A stretch of 64,000 nt of DNA. It comes from a virus (Duplodnaviria; Caudoviricetes). How positions within the stretch are numbered: the first letter of the stretch is position 1; every line of letters begins with the position of its first letter. The position numbers and the translations under genes were made by a program. The notes beneath the pieces were generated by a model. It saw nothing but the letters and a program-made list of their open reading frames with translations, did not search any database and was not told the DNA's origin. Positions 24,088 through 33,399 of this stretch are shown here, in pieces. The stretch is from the IMG/VR virus record IMGVR_UViG_3300031992_000091, positions 1,086-65,085 of that record; one strand, given 5' to 3'.

Positions 24088-25008
24088 TTACCGCTTCCCG
24101 GACGATTTAAGCCTCCGCCTTTTGAGCCTCTCCTCATAGATGTTACCATCAACATTGAAATCGATAGCGTAACCTACAGAATATCCTTTTCTAGGATCGT
24201 TTTCGTTAGGCACATGAACTCTCTTCACTCGGAATTCGACCTTGTTATCACCGAAAGGATTGTACTTATCATAGATCCAGCCATAGACCATACCAGCTTC
24301 TGTATGCTCAAAGCCGAGCATGTCATACACTTCATTCAGAGTGATCTCGCCCTTGGTCTTGAGAATATCATTCGCAAGATTCTGCTGGCATTCAAGTGTG
24401 AATCGAACCATATCAGGAGATCGATCCCACTTATCATTACCTTTGACCAGATACTTGACGAAGTCACTGCGTTCAATATCGTCCACAATATCGTCTGCGA
24501 GAACGGTTTCAAATGTCTCGTTTCCGTCCGCATCGACTGTGGATTCACTGATCTCGCCAGACTTTGTTCCGAAATATAACTTTTCTTCAGCTTCTGTACC
24601 GATGTCATCTGCAACACGACCACGATAGTCCCTGAGAGTCTTTCTCAGACCGGCTGCCGTTGCTGCAAGACCTGCGTTACGGATCTTCATCTCATGGTGC
24701 GCAGAGAAGAATGATACCATGGATAATGCAAACAGACTCGCGGGTCCTGCGAGAAGTCTTGCTCCTGCGACTCCAGTTTTTCCGTATGCAAACAGAATCT
24801 CACGACCTTTCTTAGGATCGTCATCCGGCAGAGATCTTGCTTTCTCGATGCGTACCTTATGATCATCAATAACCTTGTCCAGGCCTTTTCTGGTCTGGAT
24901 GCAAGCTGTAATGATGGCTGCGGCGCTAAATATAACACCCGCAGTCATGCAGATCTCAGGTTTCTTGTGTTTCATAACCTTTTTCAGAGATTTTCCGAGT
25001 TTACTCAT
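24088..25008 (-). CDS. DUF6353-like phage protein
   Basis: N-terminal PE(I)...G....A...AC hydrophobic segment; C-terminal GEITLNEVYDMLG...G...GW. Confidence 0.55.
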   Translation of the reverse strand: MSKLGKSLKKVMKHKKPEICMTAGVIFSAAAIITACIQTRKGLDKVIDDHKVRIEKARSLPDDDPKKGREILFAYGKTGVAGARLLAGPASLFALSMVSFFSAHHEMKIRNAGLAATAAGLRKTLRDYRGRVADDIGTEAEEKLYFGTKSGEISESTVDADGNETFETVLADDIVDDIERSDFVKYLVKGNDKWDRSPDMVRFTLECQQNLANDILKTKGEITLNEVYDMLGFEHTEAGMVYGWIYDKYNPFGDNKVEFRVKRVHVPNENDPRKGYSVGYAIDFNVDGNIYEERLKRRRLKSSGKR

Positions 25009-25019
25009 GTGTACTCCTT

Positions 25020-25628
25020 TCAATCGAGTGCTTCTGCTCTAGGCAGTTTGATCAAATATCCGTCTCTGTCACGAACCACTGAGGCGCTTCTCAGATCGGT
25101 CCAGCCATAACGGTTGTCTGTTGTCTTCCCGGTGATGCCAACCAGATCATAGAAATCAGCGACACTGACCATCTTGTAATCTTGCAGAAGTTCATCCATT
25201 CTTGCAAGAACTTCATCTGCTTCTTCTCGGCTATCGAGTATTACATCGTCATAGTCGTACGATCTCTGTCGTCTGTCAGACTCTCTTGAGCCTACACCAG
25301 GTCGATCATAATAACTCCTGTAAGATACGCGCTCTGCGTTACCTCTGGGTCGGCGTCCACCGTTTTTACCCCAGAGGAACATGTCCAGAGCGTTCGTTAC
25401 CATATCAGAGAATGTCTTCTTTACTGCAGGAACAAGAACGTCGTTCCAAATATAATTTTTAACGGTGCCAGCATCCTCCTGGATGAAGGCGTCCATGAAT
25501 TTTCTAAAACCAGATTTCTTCTTGGACTTTACTGAGCCTTTAGTAATCCGCTCGACCTTCTTTCCAGAAGATTTCTTTTCCTCTGTATCTTTTTTGGCGC
25601 TGTCAGATTTATTTCTGTAATCTTCCAA
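25020..25628 (-). CDS. Hypothetical protein with a C-terminal VSVADFYDLVG...GW domain
   Basis: C-terminal motif shared with neighbouring paralogs. Confidence 0.6.
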   Translation of the reverse strand: MEDYRNKSDSAKKDTEEKKSSGKKVERITKGSVKSKKKSGFRKFMDAFIQEDAGTVKNYIWNDVLVPAVKKTFSDMVTNALDMFLWGKNGGRRPRGNAERVSYRSYYDRPGVGSRESDRRQRSYDYDDVILDSREEADEVLARMDELLQDYKMVSVADFYDLVGITGKTTDNRYGWTDLRSASVVRDRDGYLIKLPRAEALD

Positions 25629-26381: not shown

Positions 26382-27161
26382 TTAATGCCGATCTTGATAG
26401 TTATAGGTCGGGCATACATAGAAATCCAGGACTCTGCAAGGATATCCTGCATATGGACCGGATTCTACCAGGATGACATCATCGCCTGGATCAATTTTTC
26501 CGTCTTCAACTCTCCAGCACAGACAATCACCAGGCTGTGTGGTTGGAAGTTTCAATTCGCTCCAATAATCATTCAGAGAAATATACATCTCGTCCAGCAT
26601 TCTGTAGTTGAGCGTTTGAATAGCTTTGTCTACAAATGCCGGATCGGACCAGAAATATCGCTTAGACAGTTCATCATAGAACAAAGCATTTCCTCGTCCG
26701 GTAGAGATAATATCTTCTCCATGCATTGGTGGTTTTCTGTTAACTTCGTTACGAGCCATCTGGGTTCTGATCTCGCCCTCCTTCTTTTCTCCGAGAACCT
26801 CTCTGGCAGCTGATTCATACTGTTGCAATCGGGTTTCATATAGCGAGCAGGCGGTTGTTGCCGCCACTGCCCTCCTTATAGAAATCCTCTGCCCTCCGAT
26901 AATCAGAAAGCAGGCGATAAGAAATATAATGATAGAAGGCAGATAGCATTTCCATGTGGTCTGCACTGTCTCTACCACTGTCAGCTCATCTTTCTTTTCC
27001 TCCTCCTTTTTCTTCTCGATGAGTCTGACTGCCTCCGGTGTTTTCTGCACTGCTCGTATGCCAGCAACAAGAGCCAATCCGATTCCAACACCAGCAGCAA
27101 TCTGCGGTGCTTTTTTAATAAGTCCGGCCCTTGCCAATTTCAACAACGGCTTGATCTTCAT
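26382..27161 (-). CDS. DUF6353-like phage protein (paralog of 24088-25008)
   Basis: APQIAAGVGIGLALVAG N-terminus; YISLNDYWSEL C-terminal motif. Confidence 0.55.
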   Translation of the reverse strand: MKIKPLLKLARAGLIKKAPQIAAGVGIGLALVAGIRAVQKTPEAVRLIEKKKEEEKKDELTVVETVQTTWKCYLPSIIIFLIACFLIIGGQRISIRRAVAATTACSLYETRLQQYESAAREVLGEKKEGEIRTQMARNEVNRKPPMHGEDIISTGRGNALFYDELSKRYFWSDPAFVDKAIQTLNYRMLDEMYISLNDYWSELKLPTTQPGDCLCWRVEDGKIDPGDDVILVESGPYAGYPCRVLDFYVCPTYNYQDRH

Positions 27162-27432
27162 TTCTTTCCTCCACCAAAGTCGCCGCACGCTGTATTAACT
27201 GCGAATGCGACAACGGCCACTCTTACTGCGATATGGAATGCTGCATATGATGCATCACACAGTTTCTTTCTGACCTTAGTAAGCTTCTTCATAAATATCA
27301 GCCCTCCTTCTTGGTGACATTAACCTTATCGCTGATCCCAAGTTTGAATCCAGCAACAAGACCGACAAGAAATGATGCAAATCCGAAGATAAGTCCGATT
27401 ACTCCGCACACGAATCCGATAGTAGTTTTCAT
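27158..27432 (-). CDS. Two 44-aa hydrophobic peptides (27158-27292; 27298-27432)
   Basis: Hand-translated: MKKLTKVRKKLCDASYAAFHIAVRVAVVAFAVNTACGDFGGGKK and MKTTIGFVCGVIGLIFGFASFLVGLVAGFKLGISDKVNVTKKEG; AGGAG RBSs. Confidence 0.55.
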
Positions 27433-27472
27433 AGTTACTCCTTTCTGAAAAATATAAGTGAATGCAAAAAAA

Positions 27473-27547
27473 GAAAGACCTAGTAGGATTCGAACCTACT
27501 TTCTCTACCATTGCTGGTAGCGTCCACCCCTTGGACCGAAGTCTTTC
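27473..27547 (-). ncRNA. tRNA-like RNA (75 nt) lacking an anticodon loop
   Basis: Acceptor-like GAAAGAC/GTCTTTC; D-arm GTCC-AAGGGGT-GGAC; CTACCA-GCAA-TGGTAG; T-arm GTAGG-TTCGAAT-CCTAC. Starts at promoter P11 and ends at a T7 tract. Confidence 0.7.
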
Positions 27548-27572
27548 CATAATAGTCGTTGTAAATTTTGCG
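27547..27572 (-). promoter_or_regulatory. Phage promoter motif P11
   Basis: CGCAAAATTTACAACGACTATTATGG. Confidence 0.8.
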
Positions 27573-27575
27573 CAG

Positions 27576-28226
27576 TTACGGTTTGTCGGTTAACAACTCC
27601 AATTCACAGCAAAGAGCACCGGCTTTTGTTACCTCAGGAAATTGTGACCAAAAGCTATTTAATGTCATTTTTGCATTTACGTTCCTTGGTATTGCCAACA
27701 AATTGGATCTATCGTAATTGTTAACATCGCCATCAAGATGGATTATTATATGACCCTTTGGCTTGCTTCCGTAATTAATATCTTTGAGTCGTTTCCATCC
27801 GGTTTCGGTTTTTACATACGGCTCACCATGAGACTTTTTTACAATAGATCCTGTCGGGTGATATCTTTTGGTGTTTTCTCGAAATATCTCTCTTTTTCTT
27901 TCTTTAGTAACAGTCAGCCCCATTCTCGTGCACATGACTCTTAAACCTTGAATGGATCGATCTTCGTTAAATATCCTGTTGAACTCTTTTTGGCATTTGA
28001 TCCGCCCGAGTTTGGGATAATTATTACGAAGCCATTCTAGCTGTTCTTCTGTGTAATGGTAATTTAATCCAAGTTCCCTATTACAGTGGCATTTGAACGT
28101 GTTATAGCAAATAGATGTGCCGTGTATTTCGTTATAAGCTTTGCACATCTTGCTCCAGTTTTTAAACGATCGCCAGTTATCGATAATCCATTTGTTATCA
28201 TACGTGATAGGTATTCCGGCGCCCAT
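27576..28226 (-). CDS. HNH endonuclease (homing-endonuclease-like)
   Basis: HIIIHLDGDVNNYDRSNL HNH_3-type motif. Confidence 0.7.
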   Translation of the reverse strand: MGAGIPITYDNKWIIDNWRSFKNWSKMCKAYNEIHGTSICYNTFKCHCNRELGLNYHYTEEQLEWLRNNYPKLGRIKCQKEFNRIFNEDRSIQGLRVMCTRMGLTVTKERKREIFRENTKRYHPTGSIVKKSHGEPYVKTETGWKRLKDINYGSKPKGHIIIHLDGDVNNYDRSNLLAIPRNVNAKMTLNSFWSQFPEVTKAGALCCELELLTDKP

Positions 28227-28230
28227 ATTA

Positions 28231-29375
28231 TCATCCTCTAATCAGCTGCATGGCTGCACTATTCTTCAAAGCTTTTGTCTGTGCCGCAAGCTTCTCGGTA
28301 CGAAGAATCAAATCGCCGTTGTTAATCATCTGTTTTGCGATATCAACAATCAGCTGACTCTCTTCGTTTTCAATCTGCCTTTCTTCCGGCGTAAGATCCT
28401 TACGAAGTGTTACTGTAATCCTTTGACCCAAAATATCCTGTAATTCGAGAAGTGTCATATTATCTCCTTTCATAGAAACACATGATCGTACAAATCTACG
28501 GCAACATCATAGGCGACCCGGAACATCATCCCAGATCGCCTGTCAAACATCTTAATAAATTCTGAAACAACAAGAGCCGGATCAGCATCGGTGTTTTCAA
28601 CCTCCTTTATCAAATATAGCACTGTTGTCCGGCTCCACGAATTGTTAGCAATAAGGTCTTTACTATCAACATGTAATGGATCAGGTAGGCCTGCCAAATA
28701 TATACGCATCCGCTTAATAACAAATGCTTTATTCGTCATTCTCCTGTTCATTTTTACTCTCTCGGATCTTGTCAAAGATCTTCTCAGACAGCTCTCTGCC
28801 ATAAACCAGATACATGTTGTCGGTTCGATCTGTATCACCATCGTGGAAGCATACGCTGCCATCCTGATCAGCGTTGTCGGCAATATAGTTCCATTCAGAC
28901 TGCAGGCCTTCTCGATAGTTGAAATATCCGTACATAGCCGTTCCGAGTCCGTACATAATCAGACCAGCACCTTTCATGATTTTGATCGCGGTGTTTTTAC
29001 TGATCTTAAGCTTTTTCATTCTCATCCTCCTTATAGTCCTCATGCAACGCATACGCATCTGCCATAGCTTTTACACCGGCGTCGAATCCCTCTTGATAAC
29101 CTTCTGCGTGTGCTGATCCGGCAAACAGTCCTACACCCACGGCATATGTCACAAGTGAGGCGATTTCTGCGATCCTGAGTTTTCTAATACGTGTCATTTT
29201 TACTTTCTTGATCTTAGGCAGTTTCACTTTCATCGTTATCCTCCTCATACATGATTCTTTTTACTCGCTCATCCAGATCTTCGTCATTTTTCATACCTGC
29301 GATGAGACTCACTACGGTTGCAATTCCACAGATGATTTCTGCTCCGAGTTCGATTGCACCCCATTTCTTTGCCAT
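28231..29375 (-). CDS. Five small hypothetical genes (28231-28458, 28470-28751, 28729-29019, 29006-29233, 29214-29375); the last three carry a hydrophobic helix
   Basis: Overlapping co-oriented ORFs with AGGAG RBSs; starts refined by hand. Confidence 0.6.
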
Positions 29376-29413
29376 TGGTTGCTCCTTTCTGAAAAATATA
29401 AGTGAACGAAAAA

Positions 29414-29471
29414 GAGAAACAGCAACAATCGATTTCTCGATCTAGCCGCAAATAAGCCGTCGCTGTCTCTC
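29414..29471 (-). ncRNA. 58-nt structured RNA (three-way junction)
   Basis: 13-bp closing stem GAGAGACAGCGAC/GTTGCTGTTTCTC and an internal GATCGA-GAAA-TCGATT tetraloop hairpin. Starts at promoter P12 and is followed by T5. Confidence 0.5.
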
Positions 29472-29496
29472 CACAATACCGTTTGTAAATTTTGCG
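29471..29496 (-). promoter_or_regulatory. Phage promoter motif P12
   Basis: CGCAAAATTTACAAACGGTATTGTGG (TTGT variant). Confidence 0.7.
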
Positions 29497-32887: not shown

Positions 32888-32935
32888 AAAAAATTAAGGC
32901 TCATTGTCGATTTTACGACAGTCTCGCCATCCTAT

Positions 32936-33017
32936 GAAAAGGTCAACGGAATCGAACCGTCCACTAGTAAACTAGTCGCGCCCTCATTTTAACAATGCTC
33001 CATACGCTTTCCTTCTC
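32936..33017 (-). ncRNA. Second tRNA-like RNA (~82 nt)
   Basis: Closing stem GAGAAGG/CCTTTTC, T-arm GACGG-TTCGATT-CCGTT, and two further arms (ACTAG-TTTA-CTAGT; GCGT..CATT-GTTAA-AATG..GCGC). Lies downstream of promoter variant P18. Confidence 0.55.
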
Positions 33018-33041
33018 ACATAAGCAGCTGTAAAATGCGCG
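33017..33041 (-). promoter_or_regulatory. Phage promoter motif P18 (short-spacer variant)
   Basis: CGCGCATTTTACAGCTGCTTATGTG. Confidence 0.55.
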
Positions 33042-33294: not shown

Positions 33295-33307
33295 CAAAAA
33301 AAAAAAA

Positions 33308-33399
33308 AAGAAGGCCTGATGGGAGGGTCTCACTCCATCAGGAAGGTAGTGTCTTTCAACATACTACTATTCCTACAAGCCTCACTTACTTCCTTCTTC
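33308..33399 (-). ncRNA. ~92-nt structured RNA
   Basis: Closing AAGAAGG/CCTTCTT; GTAG..TGTT-GAAA-GACA-CTAC; CCTGATGG..TGAGACC..CCATCAGG. Starts at promoter P20 and ends in a long T-tract; no ORF. Confidence 0.5.

Follow-up and report, generated by a model that had tools for sequence, protein, structure and literature searches.

Why would a temperate gut phage carry, directly behind a promoter-like sequence box, an RNA shaped like a transfer RNA (tRNA) whose anticodon loop has been replaced by a tetraloop? The question is raised by the viral DNA analysed here, a stretch of 64,000 nucleotides (nt) hereafter called the window, to which all positions refer and which makes up nearly all of the 65-kb IMG/VR record IMGVR_UViG_3300031992_000091. 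This record represents a siphovirus-like, temperate phage from sheep gut that encodes an integrase, a terminase, a tape measure protein and a fused primase–helicase–PolB protein. The RNA element lies on the minus strand, in an accessory-gene region rich in small cassettes, and was first noticed in a reading made from the letters alone (hereafter the sequence-only reading), which described a promoter-driven tRNA look-alike and took it for a non-decoding mimic, for example a decoy or a ligand of proteins that bind the T-loop or elbow. The answer that we favour, with moderate confidence, is that the element belongs, as a diverged representative, to a family of small-RNA cassettes that derive from tRNAs, do not decode and lie in early or accessory regions of temperate phages of gut Clostridia, and that it likely acts through factors that recognise the body of tRNAs.

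The sequence is present as quoted in the sequence-only reading, and RNAfold, given the element with its U-tail, returns the claimed cloverleaf, a four-way junction of −30.8 kcal/mol (z = −3.25) that folds as well in only 1 of 200 dinucleotide shuffles. The dimensions call for small corrections (Table 1): (i) the body measures 76 nt rather than 75 when its first G is counted; (ii) the closing stem, described as 7 base pairs (bp) extendable to 9, comprises 9 Watson–Crick or G–U pairs (27539–27547 with 27473–27481), or 10 if G27548 pairs with U27472; and (iii) of three nucleotides thought to be extra before the 3′ strand, one, U27482, is truly extra, while the other two pair with the UU of the 5′ strand. 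This U stands between the T arm and the closing stem and is missing in the relatives L001 and L002. A single G separates the D-like arm from the sealed arm, and the variable stretch is 5 nt long. The elbow elements of a tRNA are present, namely a T-loop of the form UUCRANY with its G53–C61 pair and a D-loop GG. The U8 and A14 core contacts are absent, the linker being CG and not UA. The arm that would carry the anticodon consists of a 6-bp stem and a 4-nt loop instead of the decoding-type 5-bp stem and 7-nt loop with U33 and purine 37, and the closing stem runs into U7, leaving neither an encoded CCA nor a free discriminator. The element was thus rightly called non-decoding, its arm being sealed by GCAA and its 3′ end devoid of CCA. 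A stem of 9–10 bp followed by U7 also has, at the level of sequence, what characterises an intrinsic terminator.

Conventional identities can be set aside. ARAGORN finds 0 tRNA or transfer-messenger RNA (tmRNA) genes in the whole window; the Rfam tRNA model (RF00005, gathering score 29 bits) matches neither the window nor any other part of the 65-kb genome, so that by both tools the phage lacks a real tRNA gene and a real tRNA or tmRNA is ruled out. At gathering thresholds Rfam returns nothing for the element, and a permissive scan yields tRNA-Sec alone, at 16.9 bits (E = 0.92). A protein-coding reading of an overlapping 74-aa open reading frame was rejected, its frame or length changing in L001 and L002; since the frame is not conserved in these relatives, the stretch is not coding. 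An attP reading was likewise set aside, given that the integrase gene is 6.5 kb away and that the tRNA-like unit precedes different genes in different phages. The GenBank phage records yielded no relative of the element or of the family described below, and scans of viral contigs with exact motifs (the 3′ half, or the window-type D arm) found only two near relatives; the 16-nt sequence of the sealed arm, searched alone, gives about 100 chance matches in these contigs.

The arrangement itself is widespread, which the sequence-only reading had missed. In well over 100 viral contigs the promoter-like box of the window element stands immediately before an RNA of tRNA shape, behind which lies a U-tract or terminator; a scan of viral contigs for the box plus a T-loop recovered at least about 86 loci in which the tRNA-shaped sequence leads into a pyrimidine run and then a U-tract. 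When species genomes were scanned, the cassette also turned up in prophages of Hungatella hathewayi, Enterocloster lavalensis, several Lachnospiraceae and an Oscillibacter; the family therefore inhabits temperate phages of abundant gut Clostridia, including, for the first two species, prophages of culturable strains (H. hathewayi WAL-18680 among them). One prophage member lies at G001:C1:3350583–3350654. Parsing 55 unique members gave a common plan. A purine leader of 2–13 nt (mostly 2–5) begins right after the box. The 7-bp acceptor stem comes next and is joined by a UA linker to a canonical D arm; a hairpin then stands where the anticodon arm would be, and a variable loop of 5 nt leads to the T arm. 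The 3′ strand of the acceptor and a trailer that pairs back with the leader complete the unit. Base 1 after the box is paired in 51 of the 55 elements. No member encodes CCA (0/55), and 47/55 have at least six U in the 9 nt after the stem, most others having a separate hairpin terminator nearby. Leader and trailer pair at 193 of 212 positions, 144 of them Watson–Crick, against 168.8 ± 4.6 and 88.5 ± 8.2 with permuted partners (maxima 183 and 114); this pairing exceeds what purine/pyrimidine composition alone yields.

Typical members score 39.6–51.8 bits on the Rfam tRNA model, above its gathering score, and Rfam holds no family for these elements beyond the generic tRNA. ARAGORN calls many of them tRNA-??? 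with ‘anticodons’ of 2 or 4 bases, or else tRNA-Stop, tRNA-SeC or tRNA-Pyl. Note that in L112, L117, L121, L125, L143, L195 and others the calls tRNA-Stop(tta), tRNA-SeC(tca) and tRNA-Pyl(cta) are made despite the lack of U33 or irregular stems. The presence of these elements can therefore give rise to spurious tRNA calls in gut viromes, which bears on claims about suppressor tRNAs and recoding. A set of metagenome contigs (L408, L411, L413, L416, L420, L421, L424 and L425) carries T-loop elements with a D-arm-like sequence resembling that of the window element, no box and a long GC-rich middle; these are unrelated and match degenerate patterns only.

If the cloverleaf matters to these phages, its helices should covary, and they do. 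The structure was given by hand and fitted with a covariance model, as MAFFT and RNAalifold alone recovered only the D and T stems owing to register shifts. The model, R1, was built from 34 members with the window lineage left out, and 66 hits (63 distinct sequences) were aligned. In this alignment 96.3% of the pair cells are standard pairs, against 76.7% with shuffled partners, and 243 cells show double changes against 54.6; not one of 500 shuffles comes up to the alignment on any of the five measures used, and at most 48.5% of cells are paired when the partners are slid. Pairs with double changes occur in all four helices of the family. Fitting the alignment to R1 biases it towards the structure; strong covariation in the T stem is, however, apparent in the raw MAFFT alignment as well. 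Likewise, the first sample of members was chosen by its T-loop, while a second was anchored on the box and D arm only; in the latter, the T-loop reads UUCRAnU in 55 of 57 unique elements and UCCGAAU in the remaining 2.

The arm behaves differently. Among 45 unique arms, 10 to about 31 nt long, loops under maximal pairing span 3–17 nt, with size 6 the commonest (15 arms) and nine tetraloops, and none (0/45) combines a 5-bp stem and a 7-nt U33/R37 loop in the canonical way, L189 becoming Glu-like if its stem is held at 5 bp. The arms nevertheless remain hairpins (median z of −3.5 against shuffles). In the L113 subgroup, counted by eye, 7 of 14 arm sites vary as against about 4 of 58 in the body. 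Selection keeps the elbow and not the arm loop, so the partners of the RNA are probably proteins or ribozymes for which the body of a tRNA is the recognised feature.

Within the window lineage, five further sequences from viral and metagenome contigs bring the set to six, and 99.3% of its pair cells are kept. The tetraloop changes from GCAA to GUAA in L419, retaining the GNRA form, and L422 carries a compensatory change from C–G to U–A in the sealed stem; the other stem changes comprise three that are wobble-compatible and one that breaks a pair of the outer stem. L001 and L002 show C–G to U–G in the D-like arm. Altogether, five of six substituted stem columns still pair (four of five substitution events), one event being the compensatory double change. 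These data bear on the possibility that the element is a tRNA pseudogene in decay, or the remains of a tRNA that persist solely because they make a handy terminator hairpin. Such a fate would explain why the window copy lacks U8, has a shortened D loop and escapes the tRNA finders, and the second T-loop unit of the window does look degenerate. With lineage substitutions that mostly preserve pairing, one of them compensatory, and with family-wide covariation in four helices around a conserved T-loop, we nonetheless regard this explanation as very improbable. The element is a maintained, non-decoding, tRNA-derived RNA and not a decaying tRNA, as the sequence-only reading had argued from its intact stems; its relatives mostly lack normal 7-nt loops, and the GNRA form persists through GUAA and one compensatory pair. 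The outcome that the sequence-only reading had named as a refutation, homologues with ordinary loops and a GNRA form without covariation, is thus not what is seen.

Does the element belong to the family? On R1 it gives a full-length match of 34.9 bits (E about 1.7e-7), on a scale where ordinary host tRNAs also obtain 30–63 bits and true members 45–84; L001 and L002 score 38.8 and 40.6 bits. In a control on two host genomes, the prophage copies of the cassette scored 75.7 and 81.6 bits and ordinary tRNAs of many isotypes 30–63. The case for membership rests on context: the same box standing directly before the stem, pairing from the first base with leader–trailer closure, a U-tract without CCA, a sealed hairpin arm and the same family of downstream genes. 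Two members with a canonical D arm, L382 and L394, have the GCAA loop of the window element and the same four closing pairs. The family-type D arm (a UA linker and GCUC...GAGC) is replaced in the window by a CG linker and GUCC...GGAC, an arm type that only L131/L415 share. We read the unit as either a diverged member or an independent tRNA capture into the same cassette.

The box spans 27 nt and consists of CGC, an A-rich run, TTTACA, five variable bases and TATTAT. The minus strand of the window has about 13 copies, all within the interval from 17.5 to 33.4 kb, and related loci hold 185–194 unique copies, each followed by a ribosome-binding site and a gene or by a structured RNA. Homology between the window and L001/L002 begins exactly at the box. 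In 29 of 77 gene-type units a Shine-Dalgarno core lies 1–5 nt past TATTAT, and in the RNA units pairing begins at the base right after the box. With a ribosome-binding site or stem so near, and a gap of only 5 nt between TTTACA and TATTAT, the latter is excluded as a sigma-70 −10 element serving a start 6–8 nt further downstream. We infer that the box is a promoter, and its layout resembles those of single-subunit polymerases; among the phage open reading frames searched, no RNA polymerase or sigma gene that might serve it was recognised. The promoter claimed for the element in the sequence-only reading is therefore kept as a recurring promoter-like box adjoining the RNA, but without sigma-70 geometry. 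What emerges is a repeated box outside the sigma-70 rules and a cassette architecture made of this box, a closed-stem RNA and a U-tract.

Table 1. Features of the tRNA-like element and of its surroundings in the window
Feature	Position	Strand	Basis or remark
Promoter-like box (CGC-N-AAAT; TTTACA 27560–27565; 5-nt gap; TATTAT 27549–27554)	27549–27575	−	Ends one base short of the first nt of the 9-bp stem
tRNA-shaped RNA body, 76 nt	27473–27548	−	Fold and R1 match; kept in L001, L002, L412, L417–L419, L422 and L423
Closing (acceptor-like) stem, 5′ strand	27539–27548	−	RNAfold; pairing begins at the 1st or 2nd base past the box
Linker CG, where U8 A9 is usual	27537–27538	−	Sequence read
D-like arm: 4-bp stem, 7-nt loop with GG	27522–27536	−	Sequence and RNAfold
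Sealed ‘anticodon’ arm: 6-bp stem, GNRA tetraloop GCAA at 27511–27514	27505–27520	−	RNAfold
T arm: 5-bp stem (sixth pair possible in the window), canonical 7-nt T-loop at 27488–27494	27483–27499	−	Sequence and RNAfold
Closing stem, 3′ strand	27473–27481	−	RNAfold and variants
U7 tract straight after the closing stem, terminator/attenuator-like	27466–27472	−	Sequence read
Short leader with Shine-Dalgarno, no box	27433–27465	−	Repeat families D7–D10
Gene for 44-aa single-helix membrane peptide, first downstream	27298–27432	−	Identical in L001/L002
DUF6353 gene (phrog_2152), second downstream	26382–27188	−	Distant homologues also behind family units elsewhere
HNH_3 endonuclease gene, directly upstream of the box	27576–28226	−	Absent in L001/L002 and the X3 relative
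Three-way-junction RNA behind the same box	29401–29472	−	z −3.75; closing-stem sequence as in many tRNA-like members; leader 92% identical to that of the window element
Second T-loop unit: canonical T arm, 5-bp hairpin with 4-nt loop, otherwise poorly tRNA-like	32937–33016	−	R1 15 bits; fold z −0.3
Stand-alone closed-stem RNA of about 92 nt, then 14 U, then directly the next box; no gene	33296–33399	−	Fold and box scan
Further box sites (examples)	33415, 33286, 33033, 32877, 31287, 30955, 30632, 29488, 26371, 25323, 17557	−	Recurrence scan

The same box also precedes RNAs that are not tRNA-like, whose two ends pair from the first base onwards and form a stem with U residues behind it. One of them, the three-way-junction RNA of the window, looks like the same cassette with a different cargo, the leader behind it (29378–29413) being 92% identical to that behind the tRNA-like element. 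In other phages (L112, L160 and L196 behind the box; L382:160–285), a conserved structured RNA of about 110 nt likewise combines a closed stem and a U-tract; Rfam gave no match for it in L112, the sole locus scanned. In a related phage from another gut sample (run X3), the HNH gene is missing, with a joint from 27572 to 28489; being absent from L001/L002 too, this gene is a mobile insertion. The same phage lacks the second T-loop unit (32936–33026; joint from 32935 to 33027), and these two absences indicate that units come and go as cassettes.

Downstream of the element, the 44-aa peptide gene intervenes before the DUF6353 gene, an arrangement shared by the window lineage. Across the family the main downstream genes belong to phrog_10740, a 105-aa family with no assigned function (23 unique loci), and to DUF6353/phrog_2152 (8 loci plus the window lineage), whose members are 25–32% identical to the protein of the window; a single-stranded-DNA-annealing protein, a methylase and a ligase-like domain occur as well. 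None of these genes has a box of its own, the 44-aa peptide and DUF6353 genes included, so they need either read-through of the U-tract or extra terminator, or co-transcription. An unbiased test of the link to DUF6353 failed: the DUF6353 alignment is too divergent for finding loci, just three of the 301 genomes examined from the order contain a match at E ≤ 0.001, two of them above the family cut-off, and the independent DUF6353 locus in G061 has no box within 1.5 kb. DUF6353 genes also form tandem paralogues, two in the window (24088–25023 and 26382–27188) and three in each prophage examined (G001:C1:3344712–3350147 and its equivalents in G002 and G003), and genes for small single-helix membrane peptides often precede them.

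This layout raises the question of whether the RNA does anything once made, or merely serves the transcript that it heads. It might be a purely cis-acting 5′ module, that is, an attenuator or insulator, a stabiliser of the 5′ end or a cutting signal for RNase P and RNase Z (‘tRNA punctuation’), the released RNA having no role of its own. The position of the unit, 20–30 nt upstream of the ribosome-binding site of box-less genes both here and at most family loci, fits such a module, as does a 5′ end paired from the first nucleotide; the presence in the same slot, between the same flanks, of the three-way-junction RNA and the diversity of the downstream genes point the same way. Against it, stand-alone units run straight to the next box or to a separate terminator (in L120 and L193 the next box lies a few bases past the U-tract), and a conserved T-loop and D-loop GG would be needless in a mere terminator or stabiliser. 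We consider a purely cis-acting module rather unlikely, though a serious contender; because stand-alone units exist, an RNA product is favoured over a role in cis only.

In the reading that we prefer, namely a family cassette whose RNA product is used, transcription would start on the first G past the box or on a base beside it. Stem closure and U7 together may then act as an intrinsic terminator or attenuator for a fraction of the transcripts, and termination would release an exonuclease-resistant, tRNA-shaped RNA of about 76–83 nt. Read-through transcripts would carry the tRNA-like unit as the 5′ module of the operon encoding the 44-aa peptide and DUF6353. The sequence-only reading had credited the element with a terminator of its own; the U7 tract does follow the stem directly, but it must be leaky or the unit co-transcribed. 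The released RNA would most likely act via host factors that read the body of tRNAs (RNase P, RNase Z or another tRNA-binding protein, for instance) and could serve as a stabilising or processing scaffold or as a titrating mimic; this last step is the weakest of the scheme.

Several observations weigh against this reading. As ordinary tRNAs score 30–63 bits on R1, the match of the window element attests its tRNA shape and not its membership of the family; on the Rfam tRNA model the element stays below threshold, and it has no U8. The pairing seen in the window lineage is matched by 77 of 500 shuffles, the six variants being too alike for significance. The U-tract cannot be an efficient terminator, as no separate box serves the genes downstream. 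Of the metatranscriptome contigs from sheep gut, X10, X19 and X21 lie on neighbouring genes and none covers 27433–27572; contigs cannot show transcript starts or ends and here speak neither for nor against expression.

Two more specific roles in trans can be confronted with these data. The first, proposed by the sequence-only reading, is that of a decoy soaking up anticodon nucleases or other tRNA-targeting defence enzymes. A location in an accessory region full of small cassettes, together with a conserved elbow and a fast-evolving arm, is compatible with such a function. Yet the element offers no anticodon loop to recognise or cut, and the best-scoring host tRNAs are a mixture of Phe, Lys, Val, Thr, Asn, Arg and Ala, so that no particular tRNA is mimicked; moreover, nothing in the analysis ties the element to any defence system. 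We rate a decoy as highly unlikely: without such a loop the RNA would be poor bait for anticodon nucleases, and the data give a defence decoy no direct support, nor do they count against one. The second, broader proposal is a dedicated small-RNA system of the phage, with an unconventional promoter whose transcripts begin on the opening nucleotide of the closed stem, a tRNA-body scaffold folded, modified and protected by the tRNA machinery of the host, and an arm serving as a fast-evolving payload slot, which together with the sibling closed-stem RNAs would act in trans on host factors, for example in RNA-based counter-defence. We deem this improbable and mention it as a speculative extension of the family reading.

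How does the family compare with known systems? A literature search on the family, on DUF6353 and on tRNA mimics and decoys returned nothing specific. The family may be included in a 2023 catalogue of viral candidate RNAs, which lists tRNA-like candidates and highly expressed RNAs in phages of Lachnospiraceae and Blautia (PMC10690425). The phage tRNA genes represented by RF00005 share with the family the cloverleaf, the D-loop GG and the canonical T-loop, but the window element lacks the 7-nt anticodon loop, the free discriminator and CCA, and its ends are zipped over 9–10 bp. The tRNA-like domain of tmRNA combines an acceptor and a T arm without an anticodon, as here. However, tmRNA has a G3–U70 pair, a free CCA end, an mRNA-like part and pseudoknots, whereas the 3:70 pair of the window element is G–C and ARAGORN finds no tmRNA. 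Ponchon and Dardel reportedly engineered a ‘tRNA scaffold’ for recombinant RNA expression, in which, similarly, a tRNA body is a stable chassis and the anticodon arm is swapped for an arbitrary hairpin; that scaffold is artificial, the idea that the natural arms are payloads has no backing, and the arm of the window element is a minimal GNRA hairpin. YrlA, a bacterial Y RNA that some phages also carry, has a tRNA-like domain and is bound through Rsr/Ro60. Like the phage unit, it has an acceptor/T/D-like module without a usable anticodon, but it also has a Ro-binding helix and an adjacent rsr gene. The phage unit has neither; its neighbours are the HNH, 44-aa peptide and DUF6353 genes, and Rfam returns no match for it.

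Small regulatory RNAs of phages offer another comparison. The C4 RNA of P1/P7 and the CI RNA of P4 are small phage RNAs recognised by the tRNA-processing machinery, a precedent given for C4 in PMC4919922. This suggests a further possibility, namely that the element is an antisense immunity RNA of this type, processed by RNase P and pairing through its loops with a nearby phage transcript, for which a variable arm would be suitable. C4 and CI act by pairing with nearby targets, but no such complementarity was found at the family loci: the longest arm match averages 7.59 nt to the own locus (within 3 kb on either side) against 7.68 nt to unrelated loci, and the 4-nt GNRA loop of the window element leaves nothing free to pair. 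We give this possibility hardly any credence. A further analogy comes from eukaryotes, where RNase P and RNase Z cut the tRNA-like mascRNA and menRNA from MALAT1 and MEN-beta (PMC4919922). These too are non-decoding tRNA shapes joined to another transcript, and recognition by tRNA-processing enzymes is the likely logic in both cases; they differ in being located at the 3′ end of a long non-coding RNA, whereas the phage unit stands at the 5′ end with its own box and a U-tract. Altogether, non-decoding tRNA look-alikes such as mascRNA, YrlA and the viral tRNA-like structures have been known as isolated curiosities, whereas the cassettes described here form a large, covarying family.

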